A DNA stretch of 24,070 nt from positions 1 to 24,070 of the forward strand of contig JBBSJT010000023.1 in assembly GCA_038257035.1 (NCBI GenBank). Direction: 5' to 3'. Both the position numbers and the translations under genes were made by a program. Shown here piece after piece: positions 1 through 17,059 of the stretch. Source of the stretch: Chlamydiia bacterium. Lineage in GTDB: Bacteria; Chlamydiota; Chlamydiia; Chlamydiales; Parachlamydiaceae. Position 1 is the first letter of the stretch; each line of letters begins with the position of its first letter. Under the pieces are notes generated by a model. That model saw only the letters and a list, made by a program, of their open reading frames with translations. It was not told the origin of the DNA and did no database searches.

Positions 1-160
1 AGGCTGAAGGCCTGGTTTTTAATAGCCTAGGGCATCGCCCTAGGAATGATATTGTATAAAATGCAGGCTGTAGGCCTGCTTTATAATTATCCTAAAATAC
101 TTTGTTTAAGCAACTTACTCCTTAGCTTAATGCGCATGCGCATGCGCATCCGCGACTAGC
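1..160. repeat. Partial copy of the REP-containing MITE-like element also found at 23760-24022 (inverted), truncated by the window start
   Basis: Bases 1-143 are the reverse complement of 23755-23897 with one mismatch (position 55). Internal hairpins AGGC-TGAAG-GCCT and CCTAGGGC-ATC-GCCCTAGG. Ends in GCGCAT hexamers followed by CCGCGACT. Confidence 0.93.
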
Positions 161-166
161 GAAAAG

Positions 167-1258
167 TTAGAATTCGTTGGAAGATATTAACTCCCTCTTC
201 AGTATATCATGCATGCTCTTTGTAAAAGCTTCAAAACTTTCTAAACAGTTGATGTTTAATGCCACTTTATATTTATTCCTATTTTCAAAATAGGTTAATT
301 CAAACGAATTTTTAAATCGAATATTTTTTTCTATAAGAAATTTTAAAAACTTGAATCCTTGAAATTGGGAAGGGAGATAATGACCGCTTTCAAACGCAAC
401 GCTGTGAATAAGCCCATCTTCTACATTCAAAAGGCCTGCACATAAAACAGGTTTTCCAAGGCTCAAACTGTTATGCCAAACTCCCGTCGATACTGTTTCA
501 AGATACAATTGTTCTTCTAAATTTAAAATAAAAATATTTCTTGAGTTTTTAGGGGTCGTCACAAGCTCTTTTGTTTCATTGTTAATAAGGTAGCCACTTT
601 CAAATTCTATAAGGCACTTATTAAGCTGTTCTTCTGAATAATAACTGACAGCAGGTGTCGCTACTGAAATGGGCTGCTCTTCAAGCCACAAGAAAAAACT
701 TTGATAACTTTGATTTACAGGTTTCGTGTTCAACCAAAATTGATAGTAATTTGCAAGGCGCCTATGACAAGGATCTATAGACTCAAGCCAAAACGCTCCC
801 CAATTCTCTTTCATTTTAAGGGAATAAGAAAGATCGTTTCTCATGGGTATAGAAACGAATTCCCTGTTCAAGTGTGTGGAAAAATCAAGATGATACCGTT
901 CAATTTCTTGATCAGTTGGAATTTCTAACAATTTTTTGATGTATTCACTTTTACTTTGAACATGATTTTTCAAGAGGTAAATCGTACTCTTTATTTCGCT
1001 AAATTTGCCTTGTATAGATAAAGCATTTAGATAGTCGGCAATGGATTGTAAAGAAGAGATCCTTAATATTTGAGTAGCGGATGAAGACTTATCAAGCGAG
1101 TGGTAATGTTCGACAAGCTGGTTTAAATATTCGATTTCTGTTTCATGACAAGCTAAAATTTCGCGATAATCGGTTGTTGGAATATCAACAAAGCTTACAT
1201 CGGAATAAATACTACATTTGAAGAAAATCAAAAGCGTTAGCAAAAAATAATATTTCAT
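167..1258 (-). CDS. Exported protein with IQM-like core domain (paralog of 4282..5358); last gene of the operon
   Basis: Motifs FWLESIDPCHR, FFLWLE, HNSLSLGKPVLCAG and ESGHYLP match the conserved core of plant/fungal IQM proteins (WLE.IDP.HR...FFYWLD...HSS...AG...SGHY.P). Likely start is ATG 1258, 1 nt after the upstream TAA, giving a signal-peptide-like MKYYFLLTLLIFFKCSIYS. Confidence 0.8.
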   Translation of the reverse strand: MKYYFLLTLLIFFKCSIYSDVSFVDIPTTDYREILACHETEIEYLNQLVEHYHSLDKSSSATQILRISSLQSIADYLNALSIQGKFSEIKSTIYLLKNHVQSKSEYIKKLLEIPTDQEIERYHLDFSTHLNREFVSIPMRNDLSYSLKMKENWGAFWLESIDPCHRRLANYYQFWLNTKPVNQSYQSFFLWLEEQPISVATPAVSYYSEEQLNKCLIEFESGYLINNETKELVTTPKNSRNIFILNLEEQLYLETVSTGVWHNSLSLGKPVLCAGLLNVEDGLIHSVAFESGHYLPSQFQGFKFLKFLIEKNIRFKNSFELTYFENRNKYKVALNINCLESFEAFTKSMHDILKRELISSNEF

Positions 1259-1259
1259 A

Positions 1260-2051
1260 TTAAAATACCCAATTAGGGTTAAGGCCTGCATAATAGCCTA
1301 TGGATTCCATTTTTTGATTAAAACTTAAAAAATTAAATCCTGATTGTCCATCCAGATACTCAATCGATTGGTTAGAGGCATGGATTGTTATAGGATAATG
1401 AATATGTGATGCTTTAGAGCCATTGAATCGATTTGCGGGGCCGTGGGCAATAAGTTTAAACAAGTGACTAGGTTTTGTCGCATTTTTAAAAACAAGCTTT
1501 TGAAAAAAAAGATTCAAATCTTTTATTATTTCAAGTTCATTTTCAGTTAACTCACCATATTCTAAATTTACTATATTTTTCTGAATTGTTTTTTTTTGAT
1601 AAATAGCAATTAGATCAATGTCTGAAATGATGTAGTGACCATTTTCAGTACATGAAACTAAAATTTGTTCATCAGTATCAAGGATATTTTCAACAAGACA
1701 CTCTTTGCCAGATCTTATGATGCCATGGTAGTTTTTATTTCCGATCTGAAATTTTAATGGCTTTACTTGAAAATCAGGATCTTTTTCAAGAAAGCCATTA
1801 GCGATTCCTGCCCTTAGGGTTCTTTTTCTGATGCTAAAATCTTTGCTCTGTACATCATCTCGAACAAAGTGTGCAAAAGAGCTTGGGTTGATTGGATTTG
1901 ATAAAATAAAAAGATCATACTTATTGGCAATGAAGCTAAAGGCTTCATTGACCAATTCTTTGCCAATTTCTATTTGTTTCTTTTGCCAGTTTAAAAAACA
2001 CTCAAATAACATTTCATTTGAGAGTTGGTTGACTTTATCATCAAGAAGCAT
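1260..2051 (-). CDS. Compact class II nucleotidyl cyclase-like protein (anthrax EF / CyaA / ExoY catalytic core)
   Basis: [27 protein letters not shown] aligns without gaps to EF [37 protein letters not shown] matches the T-A-D-x-D-L-F-A metal motif, [15 protein letters not shown] matches CyaA GVITDFELEVRNALN, and LIAHG matches VVQHG. Likely start ATG 2051 overlaps the upstream stop (ATGCTTCTTGA); 263 aa. Confidence 0.75.
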   Translation of the reverse strand: [263 protein letters not shown]

Positions 2052-2652
2052 TCGTTGAACTTTTGTTAACAAGTATTTTACGTTCTTCCAGAAAATTATA
2101 AATGGATTCTTTATCCGTTTTTTCTTCCAAAAGAACAGCTTGATATAAGAAATGACTTCCCATTTGTGGCACACGCCCTGTTTCTGACATCAGTTCGTGT
2201 TTAACTTCCAGTATTAAATCTCGATTATTTAAATTTAATTTAGATTTTAATGATTCCATAAGGGCGCGATTCTTGTCAAAATCGGGCTTTGAAAGGCACC
2301 AAATATCTAACTTCCACATTCCACCCAAATCTTTGCAATTAAGCTTTAATCCCAAATAAATTCCTCGGGGCATTTTAGGTTTATAGTCCCCTTGAAAATT
2401 AATTATCTGAGCTTCGATAAAGCCTTCATCTTTTGCTATATGGTTGCAAAGATTGCATAAAACTTCTGTAGCATTAAACCCATCCTTTAAAACGATCTGC
2501 ATGTCAATGTCATTCCATGTCATAAGATCGAGGGCATAACTTCCCGTATAATAGAGATCTCCTGAGACCTCTATCATCGATTCAATTTTTTTAGCCTTTA
2601 AAAGCTTGGTCGCGTTGTTTCTTATTGAAAATGCGGTTTCTTGGATTGTCAT
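2041..2652 (-). CDS. Pol-beta superfamily nucleotidyltransferase
   Basis: TGSYALDLMTWNDID (GS...DxD) plus a third acidic residue in WKLDIW. ATGA overlap with the radical SAM stop codon. Confidence 0.8.
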   Translation of the reverse strand: MTIQETAFSIRNNATKLLKAKKIESMIEVSGDLYYTGSYALDLMTWNDIDMQIVLKDGFNATEVLCNLCNHIAKDEGFIEAQIINFQGDYKPKMPRGIYLGLKLNCKDLGGMWKLDIWCLSKPDFDKNRALMESLKSKLNLNNRDLILEVKHELMSETGRVPQMGSHFLYQAVLLEEKTDKESIYNFLEERKILVNKSSTNAS

Positions 2653-4301
2653 ACTTGTCCTGCCAATTGTAGCTGATTCACTTCTCGCTGATCCATTTCT
2701 GGTCGATTCATTTTCTCTTGATTCATTTCTTGAATTATTTTAAAAGCTGATGGCTTCATAAACATTAACTTATCTGTTAATCTTTTCTGTATGGCCTCAC
2801 CCGTTTGATGTTCAACCTGATCAATTGAATCGTACTGCTTTAATTCAGTATTTATATTGTAGAATTCTAAAGCTTCTTGAATTTGAGTTTGATCAAGATC
2901 ATAGTGACCTAATTTGATTAATTCAAGTAAATCCCTCCATTCAACGCTATCAAATTCTCGTTTTTTATACTGATCAATAATAGTATAAGAAGCTTCATGA
3001 TAAAGCTTCATGGCCAATTCCTTACTGCCTGAAATAATGTCTTTTAAACATTGAGGAAGCTTTTCAAATTCTTCAATTACCACTTTACCAGCTTTTAAAT
3101 AATCTTGAAGAACTCTGATTGCATAGTACAATCTGGTTTTTTCTTCTTCAAATATGACTGTGCCGGAATAGTCGCGAAGACTAATGGACTTAAGTCGCAA
3201 AACTGATCTTGGGGAAACTTCTCCAACAACTTCTTCGCGGTATTTACACCCGTTTTCAATATAAGAAAGAGTAATTGGATCTCTAAAAGTTTGGTTTAAA
3301 ACTGTAGTAAACTCATCTTCGTAAATGTTGCATTGGTTGTCATTGACTTGATTTTGCCACAAGCAAATATTGCCATTATAATTTAATGACCAGTCTAGCC
3401 CCTTATCCCCGTTGGTGTTATAAAGCACAGCTGAGTTATTGTCCTCAGATTCTTCCAAGTCTCTTTCAAAGATCTTTATTGTCTCTGTTAGATTTTGTTT
3501 TTCATGAAGATTGGGTCTTAAATCAGATCCAAAAATTTTGGAAATTCCTGTAATAAATTCATAACCTGAAGCTAATTTAACATAGATTTTTTTAGGGATA
3601 ACTTTTATGACATCTTCATCATCGGATGCTCTTTTTGAACTTGTAACATTTAACGTATGGCCTTGGAAAAACTCCATCACTTTTGGAAACATCGGATCAT
3701 TTTCAAAACCGTGAATTTGAAATTTTAAGTAAGGATGGTTTGCATATTTGCTTTCAAAAATTTGAATCAGATTAACTGCCGGATTTGTACCAAGTTTTAT
3801 AGCATGGCCTGCACTAACACTGACTCTGACTGTAACTTTACAAGGTATGTTTCTTGCCTTAATTGCATTATCAATCTCTTCTAAATAGCGTTCTGCTGCT
3901 TGTTTATTTAGTGCCCAGTTACCACTTGTCACTAAAACAATTCGATTTGTTTCCACTTCTGCAATCGTTCTAAGTACGGCACGTTTTTGAGTGAGTGGCT
4001 CACCACCCCCTGAAATTAAAATATAGCCTAAATTTGCTTGGTTGCAAAAATTTACAAATTTATCTATCCCCTCTTCACTGAACTGATCAGCAACGGTGAT
4101 TTCATTTCGGGCAGGTGCTGATTTGAAAAAACAAAATGGACATCCAACACCGCAAAATCTTGTGAAAAATACACACATAAAGGATTTGCCGGCATATTCA
4201 TTGGTATCGTAGTGAACCAAATTAAATTTAAGCATCAATCGACGGTAATAATCCGGATTACTAAAGGGATTTGCTATTAAACTATTTAGCGCTTGTTTCA
4301 T
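2649..4301 (-). CDS. Radical SAM protein with long uncharacterised C-terminal region
   Basis: CGVGCPFC (CxxxCxxC), SGGGEPL and LVTSGNWA motifs. 550 aa, with no complete Cys-rich SPASM motif. Confidence 0.9.
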   Translation of the reverse strand: MKQALNSLIANPFSNPDYYRRLMLKFNLVHYDTNEYAGKSFMCVFFTRFCGVGCPFCFFKSAPARNEITVADQFSEEGIDKFVNFCNQANLGYILISGGGEPLTQKRAVLRTIAEVETNRIVLVTSGNWALNKQAAERYLEEIDNAIKARNIPCKVTVRVSVSAGHAIKLGTNPAVNLIQIFESKYANHPYLKFQIHGFENDPMFPKVMEFFQGHTLNVTSSKRASDDEDVIKVIPKKIYVKLASGYEFITGISKIFGSDLRPNLHEKQNLTETIKIFERDLEESEDNNSAVLYNTNGDKGLDWSLNYNGNICLWQNQVNDNQCNIYEDEFTTVLNQTFRDPITLSYIENGCKYREEVVGEVSPRSVLRLKSISLRDYSGTVIFEEEKTRLYYAIRVLQDYLKAGKVVIEEFEKLPQCLKDIISGSKELAMKLYHEASYTIIDQYKKREFDSVEWRDLLELIKLGHYDLDQTQIQEALEFYNINTELKQYDSIDQVEHQTGEAIQKRLTDKLMFMKPSAFKIIQEMNQEKMNRPEMDQREVNQLQLAGQV

Positions 4302-5358
4302 GACATCCCTTATGGTTGGTTGTGCAGCTTGAATTAAGAATATTTTTAAATTGTTCTAAAGTTGGAAGATTCTTAGCGTTAATTACTGATTTATATTTGT
4401 TGCGATCAAAGAAGAAAATAATTTCAAGATCGGTAGGAAATAGTGCCCCTTTTTCTTCAAAAATTTCAAGAATTTGGTATCCTATTTCAACTGTTGGTAA
4501 ATAGTGACCGCTTTCAAGTGCAAGAGAAGTTAGAATACCTTCTTTAATTTGCACAAGTCCCGCTCCCAATACAGGTTTTCCGCATGTGAAGCTCGAATGA
4601 GAAATTCCTGACTCTTCTTCAGAAATATATATGTCACCCTTTAATGATATGGAAAATAGGTAGCGTTTAGTACAATTGTCAAAATTTGCCAAAGCCCATT
4701 CAGAATCTGATTTTTCCCAAAATAAACCGTCTTTAATGATTACTCTTTTCATTTCAAGCGCATCGTCCACTAAGTACTTCACACGTGGTATATACTTTGG
4801 AAGATGTTGATTTTCGAGCCAGAGAAAAAAATCTGGAGTTTCAGGATTGCTTTGCAATAAAATTTTCCATTGATCAAGAAAAGGTGTTAATCTTCTGTGG
4901 CAAGGGTCTAAGCTTTCATACCAAAAATCTCCCCAATATTCGCGAAGTTTCAGCGAAAAAAAACGTTGATTGTTTAAAATCACACATGTTTTTGTAGAGT
5001 CGTATAAATCGGAAATGTCATTTTGAGTGCTTGTTAAAGAAGCTTGCAAATGTAATTGATTGGAATAAATATGGAAAAGTTGGATTAAATAATTGCGTTT
5101 TTTGTTGGCTATTTCTGATATCCATATCAGATGCTTTTTCTTGTCTATAGATTCAAGGCGATTGTCGATCCAATCTTTTAAAAAATCGATTATTTTATTA
5201 AGCTTTTTAATCCGACAACTGATTGTAGGAATTTGATCTTTTGGTATTTGACTATATTTTGCAATTAGAATATTAAGTTCTTCAACATTTTCTGTTTCAT
5301 AACCTAAAACGCCTTTATAGTCATCTTCAGGCAAATCTATCCAATCTATTTCATTCAT
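4282..5358 (-). CDS. Cytoplasmic protein with IQM-like core domain; first gene of the operon
   Basis: FWYESLDPCHR, FFLWLE, VKYL, YLFSIS, HSSFTCGKPVLGAG and ESGHYLPT motifs. Alignable over the full length with 167..1258 but has no signal peptide. Overlaps the radical SAM start by 20 nt. Confidence 0.8.
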   Translation of the reverse strand: MNEIDWIDLPEDDYKGVLGYETENVEELNILIAKYSQIPKDQIPTISCRIKKLNKIIDFLKDWIDNRLESIDKKKHLIWISEIANKKRNYLIQLFHIYSNQLHLQASLTSTQNDISDLYDSTKTCVILNNQRFFSLKLREYWGDFWYESLDPCHRRLTPFLDQWKILLQSNPETPDFFLWLENQHLPKYIPRVKYLVDDALEMKRVIIKDGLFWEKSDSEWALANFDNCTKRYLFSISLKGDIYISEEESGISHSSFTCGKPVLGAGLVQIKEGILTSLALESGHYLPTVEIGYQILEIFEEKGALFPTDLEIIFFFDRNKYKSVINAKNLPTLEQFKNILNSSCTTNHKGCHETSAK

Positions 5359-5685
5359 TTTTTTATACCTTTTTTGTTAAAAACAATTGAAAACCTGTTT
5401 ACACTTAGTTTTCAGTGGTTAACGCTTAAAAATCTTTATAAAACTAGTAATATAAATATTTCGGGACAAAAACTCAAATAAAAAAAACTTATATCTAGAA
5501 AAAGTAGAACTTATATCTTATGGGTTATTCAGAGAGTGTATACAAAAGTTCTACGTCAATCTAAAAAACTTAACCTCAATAATTTATTAACAATAACTTT
5601 TATGATTGTTTTCAAAATATACACGCCACCTAGCGTCCAGCATAAACCTATAAAAAAATCAGAAAAGTAATAACAGAGGTGCTAA

Positions 5686-6852
5686 TCAAGTGTGAGAAGT
5701 TTTTAAGGTTTTAGCTTTGTGATTTAGAAGCATCACGAGGGCAAAACCAAAGGCTGCAAGGATTGAGCAGAGAGCCAATGAGAGGTCAAGGCTGGGTAAG
5801 ATGGGTGATTGAGGGTTTAATAAAATGCCCTTTTCAAGCTTTAAGGGGTTTAGAAAGAAGGTGTAAGACCAAAAAGGCCAGACGGCCGGTAAGGCCCCTA
5901 TCATAAAACCTGTCATAAGAGTGATGGTCAAATTTCGATAATGATTTAATAGAAAAAGAACAACTCTTGAAAAAATTATAGCTCCAAGGAGGATTCCAAA
6001 CCCAACATTTGCTAAAATTGAAAAAGATTCAAGGTCAAATGAGAGTTGCTTGGACGATGCAATAAAATCAGCAAGGGCGCCGATCACAAGGGAATAGCAT
6101 CCAAGAATGGTTAATAAGTAGCTGCCTGAAATTCCTGGAAGAAGTAGGGCTGTAACGGCAATTGCACCGCAAAAAATGAGCCAAAGATCGATTTTAAACC
6201 ATGCACTTTGTGATCCAATCAAATCTTCTGCCGATAGCGTGTCATTTTTAAGTGGCTGATATAAAATGGTTTCTTTTGTAATGATTTTTTTCGAAAGCAT
6301 AGCAATAACAGTACTTTGAGGCACATTCCGAAGCATTTCGGAGTCATAATTGCTCAATTGTTTGTTCGTTTCAAAAGAAACAGGAACATCAAATAGAGCC
6401 TCCTTAGAAAGTGGCTTTAGATCAATACCAGTGAGCACAAACGCTAACAACACACCTGTAAGAAGTGCTGCCACATAAGTAAACCTCCACTTCTCTATCT
6501 GACTTATGATCAACACTATAGAACCGATGATTAATCCAAAAAAACCTGAATAAAGAAAAGGACGATAAAATTCATTATTTAGGATCTGATCAAAAAGAGG
6601 CACAAGAAGAACAAATGAAAGTGCTATTCCTGCTAATAGACAGCTTAAGAACTTTAAGGAGGAAGTACAAAAATTTCCCATTTTAAAAGATGTAATGCTA
6701 AAAAGGAGTTTTTGATAAAACCCCATGATAAAAGCAATTGTACCACCTGATATTCCAGGAACTAAATCTGCTGCTCCCATGCACATGCCACAAAAAACAA
6801 CAGTGCTGCTCTTTTGCAATGGATCCTTTTGCTGTATTTCCTCTTTTGGCAC
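5686..6852 (-). CDS. DUF368 family membrane protein (putative undecaprenyl-phosphate translocase)
   Basis: MGAADLVPGISGGTIAFIMG and the second repeat ALLLPGISGSYLL, with multiple hydrophobic helices. Confidence 0.88.
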   Translation of the reverse strand: MPKEEIQQKDPLQKSSTVVFCGMCMGAADLVPGISGGTIAFIMGFYQKLLFSITSFKMGNFCTSSLKFLSCLLAGIALSFVLLVPLFDQILNNEFYRPFLYSGFFGLIIGSIVLIISQIEKWRFTYVAALLTGVLLAFVLTGIDLKPLSKEALFDVPVSFETNKQLSNYDSEMLRNVPQSTVIAMLSKKIITKETILYQPLKNDTLSAEDLIGSQSAWFKIDLWLIFCGAIAVTALLLPGISGSYLLTILGCYSLVIGALADFIASSKQLSFDLESFSILANVGFGILLGAIIFSRVVLFLLNHYRNLTITLMTGFMIGALPAVWPFWSYTFFLNPLKLEKGILLNPQSPILPSLDLSLALCSILAAFGFALVMLLNHKAKTLKTSHT

Positions 6853-6853
6853 C

Positions 6854-7276
6854 TTAGATCACCTCAAAAAACTTTGCTAAAAACCAAGCAGCCGCTAACA
6901 TGCCGATCAATAAAATCATCCACATAGCGTTAGGAAACCATTTGATACCGGCGCCGGGATTGCCTCTTGATTCTAACGTCCCAATCCCATAAGAAAATTC
7001 CTGAGCTTGAGCGCGCAAGAAAACTTCAGGATTTTCGCGGATAATTTTTTCTCCGTCAATGCCAAGAAAAATCGCGTACTGTCTTAAAAAACCATGAGCA
7101 TAAACAGGAGAGATCAATTTTTGCATTTCCCCATCTTCAATAGCTTGTAAGTATGTCATGCGAATTGAAGTTGCATTTTCAGCTTCTTTAAGCGAGATAT
7201 TCATCTCTTTTCGTCTATCTTTAAAAACTTCGCCAATGTTTTTCATTTCTTCCTTATTTTTCTCTTCTCTGACCAT
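6854..7276 (-). CDS. rodZ: RodZ-like HTH protein with C-terminal TM helix
   Basis: IGEVFKDRR...SLKEAENATSIRMTYLQAIEDG...YAHGFLRQYAIFLGID (HTH_25 type) plus a C-terminal TM segment. Divergent from rnhC, as in chlamydial genomes. Confidence 0.82.
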   Translation of the reverse strand: MVREEKNKEEMKNIGEVFKDRRKEMNISLKEAENATSIRMTYLQAIEDGEMQKLISPVYAHGFLRQYAIFLGIDGEKIIRENPEVFLRAQAQEFSYGIGTLESRGNPGAGIKWFPNAMWMILLIGMLAAAWFLAKFFEVI

Positions 7277-7363
7277 GAAGTCACCCTTTTGTAAATAGTT
7301 GAATTATATACATAAGTTAAGCATAATGCAAACAAATTACCTCGTACTAAACTTTGGCATCTC

Positions 7364-8281
7364 ATGAATCAAAATTCTAATATCTTCGTAACAACCCTGG
7401 ACTTAAAATTATCCGCCAAAATGCTAGCTGATTTAACGGAACAAAATTTTGAGATTTCCACTCCCCCTTATACTGTTTTTTCTGCCAAAAAAAAGGGAAT
7501 TTCCTGCACTTTTTATAAGTCCGGTAAACTAACCGTTCAGGGAAAGGAAATGGCTTCATTTGTAGAATTCTACTTGGAACCTGAAATTTTAGGTACCTTC
7601 ACTACAAATTATAAGCATTTGGATGTGGAAACAAACCATGATTATTTGGATCATATTGGCATTGATGAATCGGGAAAAGGTGATTTTTTTGGCCCTCTTT
7701 GCATTGCCGGTGTTTATTCAAGCGCTAAAGATATTCCAAAATTACAACTTTTAGGTGTCAAGGATTCCAAAAAGTTAACGGATAGTCAAATCATCGTGAT
7801 TGGGAAAAAAATTAAAGCAGAATTTAAACATCATATCGTAAAAATCAATCCGCAAAAATATAACGAACTTTACCAACAGTTCAAAAATTTAAATAAACTC
7901 CTTGCCTGGGGACATGCAACGACGATTGAACAACTTGTTCAATCAACTGATTGCCACAATGTAATTATTGACCAATTTGCAAGTGAAGATGTTGTGATTA
8001 CAGCACTTAAAAGAAAAAAGATGGAAATCAACTTAACACAACGGCATCGGGGTGAAGAAGATCTTGTAGTGGCTGCTGCGTCAATCTTGGCCAGAATGAC
8101 ATTCCTTGAGGGGTTGGCACTTGTTGGCAAGCCTTTTGACACGGTTTTACCAAAAGGGGCTTCAAAAATAACAATTGCGATTGGAAAAAAAATCTATGCT
8201 CATTTTGGGGTAAAAGGGTTAAATGAGACAGGAAAACTTCATTTTAAAACGTATTTTGACATTACAGGCATTGAGAGATAA
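7364..8281 (+). CDS. rnhC: Ribonuclease HIII
   Basis: N-terminal TBP-like domain (FYKSGKLTVQG) plus RNase H motifs IGIDESGKGDFFGPL, GVKDSKKL, IIDQF, VAAASILAR and KLHFKT. Confidence 0.95.
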   Translation: MNQNSNIFVTTLDLKLSAKMLADLTEQNFEISTPPYTVFSAKKKGISCTFYKSGKLTVQGKEMASFVEFYLEPEILGTFTTNYKHLDVETNHDYLDHIGIDESGKGDFFGPLCIAGVYSSAKDIPKLQLLGVKDSKKLTDSQIIVIGKKIKAEFKHHIVKINPQKYNELYQQFKNLNKLLAWGHATTIEQLVQSTDCHNVIIDQFASEDVVITALKRKKMEINLTQRHRGEEDLVVAAASILARMTFLEGLALVGKPFDTVLPKGASKITIAIGKKIYAHFGVKGLNETGKLHFKTYFDITGIER

Positions 8282-12242: not shown

Positions 12243-14411
12243 ATGAATCTTGAATTTAATGATGGAAATATTATTCAGCAAATTTCAACTGCACTGAATA
12301 ATGAAAAAAAAGAGACTTCGAATAACAATCAATTTTATCATGATGTTTTATCAGTCTTATTAAGTAAACTTAATTCTGATGATGTCGCAAGCTTAGCAAT
12401 GACAAATAAGTCTTTATTAAAAAATTGCAGTACATTTTCCTTCAACTCTAATTTAAAAAAACCATCCACTCCCATCCAAATCGAGCAACACAAAAAAGGA
12501 TTTCTTAATAAACTTAAAACTAGTGCAGTCTCTTTATTCAATGAGCCTAAAAAAATGCGCCCAAGCGAGGTTTTTCCCGATTCCAGACCTTTTACTCGCT
12601 GGTGGTGGTTGAATGGACCCTTTACTAAAGTCGATATAAAAGCTCAGCTTATATGGATGAAAAAACAAGGTTTTGGTGGGGTAGAATTAGCTTGGCTATA
12701 TCCAAGTTGGGATGATCGAAAAGATTCGCTTGAATGCAAAAGAATGGATTGGTTAAGCGAAGATTTTAAGAAGACTATTACATACACAAAAAAATGTGCC
12801 GAAAAACTAGGCCTTGGCTGCGATTTCACACTTGGAAGTGCTTGGCCATTTGGAGGTTCATTTCTTGAGGCCGAAGATTGTTCTCAAACTTTTACAGGTC
12901 CATCTCTTCAGGCAATTGAGGGCTCATGGGAATCGCCAAAACATACACCCGTTCTTAATCACCTTTCAAAAAAAGCTCTTCAAAATTATGTAGATCATAT
13001 GCGGAATGCATTTGAGCCGGCTTTAAAAGGGCGACCCTCTTCTCTTTTTTGCGATTCACTCGAAATTTCAAATGATACAGTATGGAATGAAGACCTTTGG
13101 AAAAAATTTGAAGATCGCTTTGGTTATTGTTTAAGAAATCATTTAAACGAATTGGAAACCAACCCTCATATTCGTTATGATTCAAGAAAAATTTTATCAG
13201 AAGCCATTCTTAAAAATTTCTATGAACCTTTTACAGCTTTAAGTAACCAAATGGGGGCAAAATCAAGAGTTCAATGTCATGGGGCACCAACTGACCTTCT
13301 TTCAGCTTATGCTTTTGCTGATGTGCCTGAATCTGAATCTCTCCTTTTTGATCCCTGGTTTTCTAGAATACCGGCATCAGCAACTTGTCTTAGTGGCCGA
13401 TCGGTCACAAGCTGTGAAACATTCACATGTATTTATGGTTTCCGTCGAAAAACAAATGGAAAGGAACAGATTTTAGATTTAAAACTTCTCTATGATGCTG
13501 TATTAGCAAACGGGGTCAATCAGATTGTTTGGCATGGGATGCCCTATAACCCAATCAACGATCCAATTAATAAATTTTTTGCCTCTGTGCATGTCGGACC
13601 GGATGCTAATTTTGTGGATCAATTGCCTAAATTCAACCAATATATGGCAACTACATGCAATCTTATGAGATTAGGAGTTAATGCTCATCGAATGGCGGTT
13701 TATTTGCCTAATGAAGATATGATGATGCTGGGCGAGCTTCCAGATGAATATAAAAAAAGACCCGGTGCTTTATCTCATTGGGAAATGAGGTTTGTACAAC
13801 CAAAAAAAGAGACGACAGGCTATTTCCCTGTATGGCTTTCCGGTGACATGCTTTCAAAAGTTAAAATTGTCGACGGGAATCTTTGTTGTGGCGATATGAA
13901 CGTTCCCTATTTGTATATCGATGTCGAATGGTTAGATATCGATGCCGTTTCAGAACTTCTTCGGTTGGTAAAAGAAGGCGGAAAAATTATCTTAAATAAC
14001 AAGCCAAAGCAACCGGGCTTTATTCCCCACGACAATTACGAAGTTCTTCTTAAAGATCTTATGGATCACAAAAACACTTTAAAAAACTTAAAAGAAGCTG
14101 ATGTAACGCCCCTTTTACAAGGTAAAAATCTACCTAACTACTGGGCACGGGAATATAAAGGAGAATTGTACCTATTCCTTGCACATCCAAGTACAAAAGA
14201 TGTAAAATACCCTATGCGTTATTGTCAATTCCAGGAATCTAAGAATGAAAAGAGAAATATAACAATTAATCATGGTGAAAATACTATTCATTTGGATTTG
14301 GAATTTGAGGCAAATGAATCTATTATGCTAAAAATTGGTACTTGCGGAAAAGTGACTAAAATTGCACTTGATGCTGATTTTGAAGCTCATTTGTCCCAGC
14401 AAGACTCATAA
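12243..14411 (+). CDS. GH106 (alpha-L-rhamnosidase-like) glycoside hydrolase with F-box-like N-terminal extension
   Basis: SRPFTRWWWLNG, GFGGVE, LGSAWPFGG, FCDSLE, DVPESE, SCETFT and GVNQIVWHG are GH106 hallmarks. About 110 extra N-terminal residues include DVLSVLLSKLNSDDVASLAMTNKSL. No Sec signal peptide. Confidence 0.82.
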   Translation: MNLEFNDGNIIQQISTALNNEKKETSNNNQFYHDVLSVLLSKLNSDDVASLAMTNKSLLKNCSTFSFNSNLKKPSTPIQIEQHKKGFLNKLKTSAVSLFNEPKKMRPSEVFPDSRPFTRWWWLNGPFTKVDIKAQLIWMKKQGFGGVELAWLYPSWDDRKDSLECKRMDWLSEDFKKTITYTKKCAEKLGLGCDFTLGSAWPFGGSFLEAEDCSQTFTGPSLQAIEGSWESPKHTPVLNHLSKKALQNYVDHMRNAFEPALKGRPSSLFCDSLEISNDTVWNEDLWKKFEDRFGYCLRNHLNELETNPHIRYDSRKILSEAILKNFYEPFTALSNQMGAKSRVQCHGAPTDLLSAYAFADVPESESLLFDPWFSRIPASATCLSGRSVTSCETFTCIYGFRRKTNGKEQILDLKLLYDAVLANGVNQIVWHGMPYNPINDPINKFFASVHVGPDANFVDQLPKFNQYMATTCNLMRLGVNAHRMAVYLPNEDMMMLGELPDEYKKRPGALSHWEMRFVQPKKETTGYFPVWLSGDMLSKVKIVDGNLCCGDMNVPYLYIDVEWLDIDAVSELLRLVKEGGKIILNNKPKQPGFIPHDNYEVLLKDLMDHKNTLKNLKEADVTPLLQGKNLPNYWAREYKGELYLFLAHPSTKDVKYPMRYCQFQESKNEKRNITINHGENTIHLDLEFEANESIMLKIGTCGKVTKIALDADFEAHLSQQDS

Positions 14412-16311
14412 CGCTCTTTAAACTCATCCAATGTGCTGCAAAGCGCTATGCAATCGGGAAGAACGGTATATCTAGAAAGGGTTGGTGGCTCCAATCCATT
14501 AAGCTTATATAGAATGTAATGCAGCTCAAGCATGGTTTGAGAATTCCCCCTTACTGTCGGCATAAGTTGCACACCTTTCCAATAGAATTCTGCAATTTTA
14601 CCTTCAAATTCTGTAATGCTTTGAGGGTCCTGAAGATCCACTTTTGCATTAACAAGGTTTTTCCAATCCTTAGAAATTCCTATTTGATCAAACCAATGTG
14701 GATTAGACCTTTCAGCTATAGGAACATTCTTGTCAAAGATCGGTTTTGAATGATAGAATTGTAATGCGGGTTCATAATTACTAGCTGTTGATGCAATTGT
14801 AGTTAGCTTAAAGGATGAATTTTTATCAGAGGCAATGGATATATTGAATGAATTTATACTAGCCTTAGAAACATTTGGGTTTTCATATTTATTATCTAAC
14901 TTTTCAATTGCAAATTTTTTAAAAATCGCATAACGCGTTAATATGGGTGTTTGACCTATGCCCATTCTCCAAGGGTTTTCTCTGTGGAGTTGATCATTGT
15001 TAAATAGGCAGATTCCAAAGTTTTTGAGGGATCGAGTTTTAATTCTTCTATAACTTTATTAACAAGCTGAAGATGTTTTTCACCGTATCCTTGTTGTTGT
15101 TGCTCATAATTCTCATAATTTTTTCCATAAGCTTGAAACACCTCTTGTTGGTGCATTGGATTAGGAAAGCGTGAAATTAATTTACCGGCGGCAGAATTGA
15201 ATTTATTGGCTTCGTTTAATAATGTGTCGCTAATCAATCCATTACTTTTAAGTAAAAGGGTCAGCTCATTAACTTCGTTTTTATTCGAATTTAAAAAATA
15301 TTCTGTAAGTTTATTTGGCTTTAACTCTTCAGGAATATTTTTGAACTCAGATAATGCAAACTCTTTCCATTTAGGGTTTATGTTTTTCATTAAACTTAAA
15401 TTTCCTTGGGAATGGGCTTGTTTGCTAAAATCAGAAATTTGGCTCTCGGTCAATTTTTGATCCATAATAGGCAAAATATCTTCTAAAAATTTCTCTAAGT
15501 TTGCATTTACACATTTTTTTATAAGTTCGTTTTTGCCATTACGATCCGAAAATTTTACAATCAATCCCACAATGTTTAAATCTTGTTCTTCGATGGCTCG
15601 CGCCATTACTTTTTCTATATTAGGAAGCTTCCCATCATTAATTTCTATTAGCGATTCAGCTAAATCTACATTTAAAGCCGTTATTGATTTCTCAATGATA
15701 TCTTCTAGATCTTTACCCGTTGTTTTAGTTAGTTTAACCAATTTGCAAATATTCTCATGCATATCATGGGGTACATTAATAAAACTTGAGACCAAACCCA
15801 CTCCCGCTTGAAGAACAGTATTTGCTTGTTGTTCATTTAATTCATATATATTAAAGCGCGGATTACTTAATAGAGCAAGAATGGCGTTGTCATCTACTAA
15901 AAAGCGTGATAGTAAGTGTTCCATAATAAGATTTGCCATTTGGGGGTTATTATCCATAACATCCAAAACAGTATTCACATAAATTTCAATAGCAATCATC
16001 TGATCTTTCACATCTTCTTTTCCCTTATTGCTTCTATAAATATTTCTTGCAAATGTCTGTAAAGAAGCATTCACTTCATCATTGCTTCCATTCAACATCC
16101 CCTGATTTATATTCTCATGAAAAATGCCCACCTCTTTCCCTAAGTCAAAAGGTGCTGTTTTATGTATTTCTGTTTGCACAATCTGCAATCTTGTTTTTTC
16201 TTTAGGAGTAAATGAAAATTCTTTTATTGCGTTTTTAATATTATCAATTTTTTTATTGACGCTATTAAAAACATTTATTTGAAAGCTTCTGCCTACTGAT
16301 GCCGGTTCCAT
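14387..16311 (-). pseudogene. Frameshifted paralog of the AvrB-type Fido protein at 17060..18991 (ORF fragments 14956..16311 and 14387..14965)
   Basis: The two fragments align colinearly to the N- and C-terminal parts of the intact paralog (LISRFPNP, QQQQGYG; TPIL.RY, EFYWKGVQLMPT.RGNSQ, LPDCIALCSTL). The frame break is at about 15002-15004. Confidence 0.82.
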
Positions 16312-16324
16312 AAACCCTCTTTAG

Positions 16325-16924
16325 CTATTTCTTTGTTTTAAGGTAATCTAATGCAGCTATTGCCTGTTCTTTGATGGCTTCATTTTCCTTTGCAGCTTCA
16401 AGAAACTCTTCAAGTTCTACAAAATCTTGAATATTTTCATAACAGCGAATGAGCCCGATGTATGGGGTAAAATCGTCAGGGTCTGACACTTTTATGGCGG
16501 TTTTAAAACAATTAATTGCTTTATACTGATCAAGATTTTTTTCATACGCTAAACCAAGACCAATCCAGAACGCGGGAACATACGGGTTTATGGTAGTTAA
16601 GAAAAGAAAAGTAGTGATTGCTTTGTCAAGATAACAATTATGATAAAAAGATGTCGCTATTTCATAAAAAAGAAATTGAACATCCGAAGAAAAATTACCA
16701 TGAATAGAATCTGTTTTTGAAAAAAACTCCGATTCGATCTCATCTTTGATGATTTCCAACTCTTCTGAAAACTGAAAATCTTCTATAGGTATGGGTTTAA
16801 TGTTAGGATCGCTCGAATAATAGCCAACCTTTGAATTTTTAAGTATTTCTTCCGCTAGAAGAAGGTACCCTTGCTCAAAGGATTTAATATCAATTTTTTC
16901 GTTTTTAATATGCATTAAAAACAC
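16325..16924 (-). CDS. SycD/LcrH-like TPR protein (class II T3SS chaperone-like)
   Basis: FYEIATSFYHNCYLDKAITTFLFLTTINPYVPAFWIGLGLAY...AINCF...PYIGLIRCY gives the typical tandem-TPR pattern; acidic, about 199 aa. Confidence 0.75.
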   Translation of the reverse strand: MFLMHIKNEKIDIKSFEQGYLLLAEEILKNSKVGYYSSDPNIKPIPIEDFQFSEELEIIKDEIESEFFSKTDSIHGNFSSDVQFLFYEIATSFYHNCYLDKAITTFLFLTTINPYVPAFWIGLGLAYEKNLDQYKAINCFKTAIKVSDPDDFTPYIGLIRCYENIQDFVELEEFLEAAKENEAIKEQAIAALDYLKTKK

Positions 16925-17059
16925 CTAATCCGTTAATAAATCATTATAACCTAATTACACCACTGTTAAATCATTAATAACATAGTGATTTTTTTAAATA
17001 TGACATACTAAGACAAGTAACTGTTCAAACGATTGAATCCTAATTATTTTATACGAAAT

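Follow-up and report, generated by a model that had tools for sequence, protein, structure and literature searches.

An operon-encoded pair of chlamydial proteins assigned by sequence comparison to the Tox-EDA39C superfamily, which takes in the core of plant IQM proteins

The motifs W.E..DP.HR, FF.WL, H.S...G..V..AG and SGHY.P belong to the conserved core of the plant IQM proteins, a family described as plant-specific in the quoted text of a soybean IQM paper (PMC9853202). Why should two genes of one bacterial operon encode the same motifs, and what might their products do? The question is raised by a stretch of 24,070 nucleotides from a Chlamydiia bacterium (assembly GCA_038257035.1, contig JBBSJT010000023.1, positions 1 to 24,070), which is referred to here at its full length as the window and has a G+C content of ~35 %. 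The minus strand of positions 167-5358 carries five co-directional genes, most of which overlap, and we refer to the open reading frames (ORFs) at the two ends of this set as A and B:

4282..5358, minus strand: gene A, 358 amino acids (aa), predicted to comprise a four-helix bundle, an extended Tox-EDA39C (IQM-core) domain and a C-terminal helix; no signal peptide.
167..1291, minus strand: gene B, 374 aa, a paralogue of A with a signal-peptide-like leader at residues 1-30 (1202-1291).
761-775 and 377-388, minus strand: DPCHR and SGHY, respectively, in the sequence of gene B.

A first-pass annotation of the window had reported all four motifs in both of these operon-flanking genes, and this was borne out. 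In A they read W146.E148..D151-P152.H154-R155, F177-F178.W180-L181, H254.S256...G260..V263..A266-G267 and S283-G284-H285-Y286.P288, while B has DPCHR at residues 173-177, FFLWLE at 199-204, HNSL at 273-276 and SGHY at 302-305. The two proteins are 30 % identical across 337 residues (E 4e-53), and no further copy was found in the assembly (2.37 Mb, 95.8 % complete). We found 101 homologues of A, and in an alignment of 83 relatives the four motifs form the most conserved columns: G143, D151, P152, R155, W180, E182, H254, G267, G274 and G284 are invariant, and H154, S283, H285, Y286 and P288 are at least 90 % conserved. Known family models did not account for this conservation. Neither protein matched a family in Pfam, NCBIfam, PADLOC or PHROGs, a Pfam scan of each of the 83 relatives returned scattered chance matches only, and a sequence search of the PDB with the A/B family gave no match.

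We compared the family with plant proteins by means of a search profile built from 19 chlamydial-type sequences, without any plant sequence, which was run against a database of 1.84 billion representative proteins. The search gave 8046 matches at E ≤ 0.001 and 3145 at E ≤ 1e-10. Among the 150 matches listed was a 'calmodulin-binding family protein' of Dovyalis caffra (P0208; HMMER E 5.5e-38), whose nearest named relatives are the 'IQ domain-containing protein IQM2' of many plants. With hhalign, the profile alignment of the bacterial family (83 sequences) to plant IQM2 (18 sequences) had a probability of 99.6 % (E 3.3e-24) over 161 columns, pairing residues 142-308 of A with residues 213-387 of IQM2, a span that takes in all four motifs; the plant side of this comparison consists of IQM2/IQM3-type sequences, not of IQM1 itself. 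The resemblance of A and B to the plant IQM core is therefore far beyond chance, and on this sequence evidence the homology is real. The first-pass annotation had proposed exactly this kinship and would have given it up had no significant profile match to IQM proteins appeared; the HMMER and hhalign results uphold it.

The relationship is confined to the core. Plant IQM1-IQM6 (IQM1 being EDA39, AT4G33050) share with A and B a core of ~165 residues, including the extension described below and all of the motif residues, whereas A and B lack the plant-type N- and C-terminal regions, are bacterial and operon-encoded, and include one copy with a signal peptide. Membership of the plant family is defined, in the quoted text of PMC9853202, by one IQ calmodulin-binding motif N-terminal to the core. 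No IQ motif was detected in A or B by regular expression or by Pfam, as the first-pass annotation had also remarked, and a loose IQ pattern does find LQKVYKSFRTR in IQM2. A and B thus have the conserved core (W.E..DP.HR / FF.WL / HSSF..G....AG / SGHY.P) and no IQ motif, and because that motif is absent they would not be calmodulin-binding IQM proteins.

The link between the IQM core and bacteria, which had been treated as new when the locus was first annotated, is a rediscovery. Zhang, de Souza, Anantharaman, Iyer and Aravind (2012, Biol Direct 7:18; PMC3482391) named the domain Tox-EDA39C after plant EDA39; EDA39 is AT4G33050, cited alongside the AtIQM1 paper in the excerpted text of PMC9795773. 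As far as the excerpted text of the 2012 paper goes, Tox-EDA39C is an alpha+beta domain of ~120 residues with the signature 'H, Sx[HS]Y', the histidine lying in the N-terminal half and the motif in the C-terminal half. It is reported there from many bacterial phyla including chlamydiae, and from plants, chlorophytes, fungi, dictyostelids and stramenopiles, is counted among the effectors of endosymbionts, and is proposed to have reached eukaryotes from bacterial endosymbionts. In the literature searched, the term 'EDA39C' occurred only in that paper. Both proteins of the window carry the signature, A with H254 and S283-G-H285-Y286 and B with H273 and S302-G-H304-Y305, and the predicted model of A is alpha+beta. 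The sequence comparisons therefore show A and B to be members of the Tox-EDA39C (EDA39C/IQM-core) superfamily. In gene A the relevant parts are as follows:

4369..4776, minus strand: Tox-EDA39C domain proper, A residues 195-330, with the H254 codon at 4597-4599 and S283-G-H285-Y286 at 4501-4512.
4783..4947, minus strand: the 'extension', A residues 138-192, with W.E..DPCHR (DPCHR at 151-155) and FFLWLE (177-182).
5023..5343, minus strand: N-terminal helical bundle, A residues 6-112, starting with a conserved WIDLP and including Y35, K40, R49, K87 and Y90.

We used a profile of the C-terminal part of the core alone to look for the domain in larger proteins. Of 8000 candidates scored, 357 longer proteins matched at E ≤ 1e-5, and the matches listed carry PAAR, RHS, WXG100_2 or DUF4157, a domain of extracellular contractile injection systems (eCIS). 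Giant proteins with TPS/Fil_haemagg, WXG100_2, a type IX secretion system (T9SS) sorting tail or Gln_amidase, a papain-fold glutamine deamidase, contain two to six copies of the same part (profile positions ~200-335). These co-occurring delivery domains led us to the comparison with the polymorphic-toxin survey of Zhang et al. The toxin copies have the same domain, with a histidine in the first half and S-x-H-Y in the second, and occur in proteins with delivery domains of the type V, VI and VII secretion systems (T5SS, T6SS, T7SS). In contrast, the domain of A and B is not joined to a delivery module and has no evident immunity gene beside it; instead it has an N-terminal helical bundle and the DP.HR/FF.WL extension, and a radical SAM / nucleotidyltransferase (NTase) / ABC-2 operon encodes it twice, in two paralogues. 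Relative to the excerpted text of the 2012 paper, three features look new: this architecture, the extension held in common with plants, and the operon with its radical SAM and ABC genes. H254, G260, A266-G267, G274 and S283-G284-H285 are invariant across the chlamydial, plant and toxin copies.

Other chlamydial genomes use the core differently. Four of ten such proteins examined run on into ankyrin repeats and one of the ten contains an SH2 domain, a pattern in keeping with effectors that act in eukaryotic hosts, the role which the 2012 paper proposed in other endosymbionts. The SH2 case is a 921-aa protein (L011, G014:C23, 409-3174, minus strand) with a eukaryote-type SH2 domain (PF00017, E 2.7e-12, residues 245-307) ahead of EDA39C (427-558). 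At two further chlamydial loci (G239:C19:37797-41349 and G270:C1:2597390-2600574), three to four adjoining genes on both strands each encode an EDA39C subdomain, in what look like lineage-specific expansions.

The extension proved informative about which bacterial form the plant proteins resemble. It aligns with HWLEAIDPRHR...FFYWLD of IQM2 (hhalign), and a hidden Markov model (HMM) of the extension only, built from chlamydial-type sequences alone, matched 113 of 120 plant IQM proteins. Against the 118 new proteins listed from the C-terminal-subdomain search it matched eight, seven of them eukaryotic and one unnamed. In all 19 bacterial toxin-type proteins picked for comparison the match to the core HMM starts only at position 45-55, whereas it starts at position 7-9 in the plant proteins and most of the chlamydial ones. 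No extension was thus detected in the bacterial toxin-type proteins checked, and it was seen only in chlamydial-type and eukaryotic proteins; this common extension links the plant proteins with the chlamydial form and not with the toxin form. In a quick maximum-likelihood tree of 77 rows and 199 columns (short search, extension columns empty in the toxin rows), the 19 rows of toxin type fell together on one side (SH-aLRT 89), and the plant and EukProt rows joined in one clade (100) within an unresolved polytomy with chlamydial lineages; the tree leaves out endosymbiont, fungal and protist sequences. The extension and the tree would fit an origin of the plant genes in a chlamydia-like source, and are no proof of it. 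Within the plant IQM3-like group of the same tree sits a 440-aa eukaryotic protein from EukProt transcriptomes (P0428 / P0422) in which the extension and the EDA39C domain are accompanied by an IQ motif (PF00612).

What might the core do? The first-pass annotation judged that its conserved His/Ser/His-Tyr set looked catalytic or ligand-binding, and the catalytic option agrees with the excerpted 2012 paper, which predicts that Tox-EDA39C is an RNase whose two conserved histidines make up a metal-independent active site like that of RNase A (PMC3482391). An invariant histidine, Ser-Gly-His and glycines, kept from chlamydiae to plants to PAAR, RHS and WXG100 toxins, have the pattern of an active site. 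The likeness to RNase A and other two-histidine, metal-independent RNases lies in the predicted mechanism only, that is, in the two conserved histidines; no fold or sequence relation to RNase A-type RNases was found for the A/B core. When the core of A alone (residues 120-358) was modelled, the prediction was confident (pLDDT 94.9), and the comparison of this model with 48,161 chains of solved structures in VIA-align gave 41 chains with Z of at least 2, none with Z of at least 5, and a best Z of 3.9 for human phosphohistidine phosphatase. Foldseek against the PDB gave a best E of 0.21. We read this as a core fold with no solved relative among the structures compared, as far as a predicted model can say, which is not proof of a new fold. 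Among predicted structures in BFVD the core model matched the viral protein G8DGH9 (351 aa; Foldseek E 1.2e-4, 21 % identity), probably a viral EDA39C homologue, and the ESM Atlas returned unnamed bacterial clusters only, apart from a weak lead to DUF8093 (21 % of one cluster) that Pfam did not confirm. Kinship with ribosome-inactivating proteins was also set aside: a similarity of the IQM C-terminus to 'trichosanthin' is quoted in the excerpted PMC9853202, and no such protein was among the fold matches listed by VIA-align or Foldseek.

The N-terminal bundle gave clearer structural matches. In the AlphaFold model of full-length A (pLDDT 95.1, pTM 0.89), residues 6-95 fold into a helical bundle. 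The model was compared with the same 48,161 chains, and its best match was to residues 2-90 of TcdA (5uqk), with Z 10.1 and a root-mean-square deviation (rmsd) of 2.1 Å over 83 aligned residues; the tool advises Z ~13 for helical bundles. The top five matches (TcdA, TcdB, a second TcdA entry, TcnA and MARTX RID) are all bundles of the type known as '4HBM' membrane-localisation domains (reviewed in PMC3417404), and RRSP, Pasteurella multocida toxin (PMT) and the helical domain of edema factor followed lower down. Like the 4HBM of TcdA/TcdB/TcnA, MARTX RID/RRSP and PMT, the bundle of A has ~85 residues at the N-terminus ahead of a presumed enzyme domain (Z 10.1-7.6, rmsd 2.1-2.6 Å). 4HBM domains bind anionic membranes through basic-hydrophobic loops, L1 and L3; in A, L18-G19-Y20 and K72-K75 fall in predicted loops. 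However, there is no detectable sequence similarity to these toxins, the attached domain differs, and membrane binding by the A bundle is putative; Pfam, including the scan of the 83 members, and the PDB gave the bundle no support by sequence. Resting as it does on a predicted model, 4HBM kinship is a good lead and not a membership.

Between A and B lie three genes on the same strand:

2649..4301, minus strand: radical SAM protein, 550 aa, overlapping gene A by 20 nucleotides (nt); Pfam Fer4_12 27.2 bits (cut-off 22), Radical_SAM E 2.9e-6.
2041..2652, minus strand: Pol-beta-type NTase, 203 aa; Pfam NTP_transf_2 E 0.026, a weak assignment.
1260..2051, minus strand: conserved protein that fits no known family, ~263 aa when read from the ATG at 2051; the ORF is open to a GTG at 2174 (~304 aa).

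The first of these had been taken for a cyclase, and no cyclase adjoins gene A: the 550-aa protein has C50-x3-C54-x2-C57 invariant in seven orthologues and, with its Fer4_12 match, belongs among the radical SAM proteins. It weakly resembles viperin, YydG and PFL-activase, and falls well short of the viperin-type family (NF038283 21 bits against a cut-off of 180; PADLOC pVip E 7.7e-4). In the NTase, G37-S38...D48.D50 is invariant in nine orthologues. The protein at 1260..2051 had no match in Pfam, NCBIfam, PADLOC or the PDB; some 40 of its residues, many of them polar, are invariant in eight orthologues, and because of these it is probably an enzyme. For the same reason a role as an immunity protein was set aside, since there are too many invariant polar residues for a simple inhibitor. 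Sequence searches of the PDB with all three neighbours gave no match. The nucleotide-related setting proposed for the locus therefore stands in part: it loses the cyclase and keeps the Pol-beta-type NTase, joined in relatives by dNK/dTMP-kinase-like, NUDIX and EEP proteins. The EEP of relatives bears a signal peptide, and its best matches, which are weak, are to exonuclease III. An Rfam scan of positions 1-7400 found no riboswitch ahead of the operon, and a promoter scan gave 22 sites against 22.1 in shuffled sequence.

We used relatives to establish the order of the operon, which is A, radical SAM, NTase, the protein of no known family, B, EEP, an ABC ATPase (DrrA-like) and two further genes, with overlapping starts and stops. 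The final gene matches ABC2_membrane_6 in both of the two loci tested and the penultimate one in one of the two. Six loci with complete flanks have the same gene order, with identity of A down to 46 % in L039 and L041; the full order was seen at L022/L037, L025, L029/L034, L039 and L041, and L026, L035 and L036 agree with it as far as their contig ends. That so tight and overlapping an order is kept down to 46 % identity argues for functional coupling of A with its neighbours. Leaders, read by eye and for six B orthologues, are present in the B and EEP orthologues and absent from those of A. In the L025 locus, from a metagenome-assembled genome titled Verrucomicrobia bacterium, gene A (4944-6020) is split into ORFs of 220 and 136 aa; either the copy is broken or the sequence contains an error. 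We scored 300 genomes of the phylum: 49 match the family profile, mostly with the core alone, and five have the full-length form. The radical SAM gene is present in four of the 300 and always adjoins a full-length A/B-type gene; its product is 76-78 % identical among three different families of the phylum, which suggests lateral spread. A variant in genome G069 encodes a deoxynucleoside kinase (dNK)-like protein, the radical SAM protein, one leader-bearing copy, EEP, NUDIX and an aldo-keto reductase.

In the window the operon runs into the end of the contig, next to which lies one further feature:

63..79, minus strand: terminator-like hairpin with palindromic repeats after gene B, at the contig end.

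The contig breaks off in these repeats 166 nt past gene B, and the same repeats begin a second contig of the assembly, C124, on which the ABC ATPase of the operon and the next two genes (ABC-2 permeases) are found. The repeat elements occupy window positions 1-134 and positions 1-138 of L042 (G000:C124), examples being AGGCTGAAGGCCT and CCTAGGGC..GCCCTAGG, and they are the probable cause of the assembly break that separates gene B from the ABC exporter. Window positions 1-44 (minus strand) also match the Rfam family RF01687, Acido-Lenti-1 RNA, at 32.8 bits (gathering threshold 37; E 1.4e-4), the match being clipped by the contig end. On the other side of gene A, genes for a PopT/DUF368 polyprenyl-phosphate transporter (5686-6852, minus strand), a short RodZ-like HTH_25 protein (6854-7276, minus strand) and an RNase HIII-type protein (RNase_HII + DUF3378; 7364-8281, plus strand) are ordinary neighbours that are not conserved beside the operon in relatives. 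Further along are several ORFs at 14387-21386 (minus strand) with no Pfam match and a 692-aa AAA/NACHT-like NTPase at 21559-23637 (plus strand; PF00004 E 1.1e-9, NACHT E 2.8e-5).

The reading that we favour, tentatively and at somewhat less than an even chance, is that A and B are a Tox-EDA39C pair performing two-histidine phosphodiester cleavage on opposite sides of a membrane and encoded in an operon that is conserved and laterally mobile. The conserved core of plant IQM proteins (EDA39/IQM1-6) would then derive from the bacterial toxin/effector domain Tox-EDA39C. Each protein would consist of an N-terminal four-helix bundle, an extended EDA39C core (W.E..DP.HR / FF.WL before H...SGHY) and a closing C-terminal helix. 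The most likely chemistry would be metal-independent phosphodiester cleavage, with H254 and H285 as an acid/base pair as in RNase A, and the substrate may be RNA or a nucleotide-derived phosphodiester, as suggested by the NTase, kinase, NUDIX and nuclease-like neighbours. A and B would probably act on opposite sides of the inner membrane: A, which has no signal peptide, is encoded with the radical SAM protein, the NTase and the putative enzyme of no known family, and B, which has a Sec-type leader, is paired in most relatives with the exported nuclease-like EEP, a DrrA-like ABC-2 exporter following. Several observations weigh against this reading. No measured activity was found for any EDA39C or IQM protein in the literature searched, where the papers listed likewise included no experimental work joining IQM proteins to ribonuclease or toxin activity; two conserved histidines are all that the RNase idea draws on; and the core model (best Z 3.9; Foldseek E 0.21) matches no solved nuclease or other fold. 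No immunity-like gene is evident at the locus, in one genome (G038) a full-length homologue is present and the radical SAM gene is missing, one locus (L028) lacks B and EEP, and the EEP gene was not found in the present genome, 95.8 % complete, with the query used. A more specific version seems improbable to us, namely that the extended core is a two-histidine phosphodiesterase acting at both faces of the chlamydial inner membrane, with A inside and B outside, on a substrate made or modified by the co-encoded radical SAM, NTase and third protein, and that plant IQM proteins descend specifically from the chlamydial extended form and are calmodulin-gated enzymes, not scaffolds.

The main rival, which we consider unlikely if still the most credible of the alternatives, is that A, and perhaps B, is a host-directed effector in which a true 4HBM carries the EDA39C enzyme to host membranes, at their inner face, the neighbouring genes of the operon being irrelevant to its action. 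The five best structural matches, all membrane-localisation bundles, with RRSP and PMT lower, speak for it, L18-G19-Y20 and K72-K75 recall the basic-hydrophobic motif (PMC3417404), and the ankyrin and SH2 partners of other chlamydial cores, together with the place of EDA39C among endosymbiont effectors in the excerpted 2012 paper, fit it. However, the bundle's Z of 10 is below the ~13 advised, no Pfam match to the bundle appeared across the 83 members, the conserved overlapping gene order argues for coupling with the neighbours, and the Sec leader of B is unlike a type III substrate. That the core is instead a non-catalytic module binding a nucleotide or other small ligand, or a protein scaffold, we regard as more doubtful than the specific version above. 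It would suit the plant literature, in which, as far as the quoted text goes (including PMC9853202), IQM proteins are portrayed only as calmodulin-binding partners of other proteins, and the tandem copies in giant proteins, which are more usual for binding modules than for enzymes; but the active-site pattern of invariant residues and the company of PAAR, RHS, WXG100-like or eCIS delivery domains speak against it. Least probable of all in our estimation is cleavage of a lipid or polymer head-group phosphodiester. Bacterial phosphatidylinositol-specific phospholipase C uses an RNase-A-like two-histidine mechanism, and a site of this kind could work with the bundle on the bilayer, at either face, while the ABC-2 exporter moves the substrate. 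The membrane-type bundle on both A and B, their probable placement on opposite sides of the membrane and the exporter in the operon are consistent with such a role, yet the neighbours are nucleotide and nucleic-acid enzymes, not lipid enzymes, and no phospholipase was among the structural matches.

The basic homology has been known since 2012, and it is the gene setting, the architecture and the extension that, relative to the excerpted text of that paper, add to it. In the plant literature, as quoted, IQM proteins are 'plant-specific' and have no enzymatic function; the present comparisons suggest that an ancient toxin/effector domain of bacteria, with an invariant His...Ser-Gly-His, forms their core. 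The conserved operon is a source of candidate substrates and partners for this IQM/EDA39C core. The chlamydial proteins A and B, being small, soluble-looking and confidently modelled, may therefore serve as tractable stand-ins for finding the activity of the superfamily, plant IQM proteins included.

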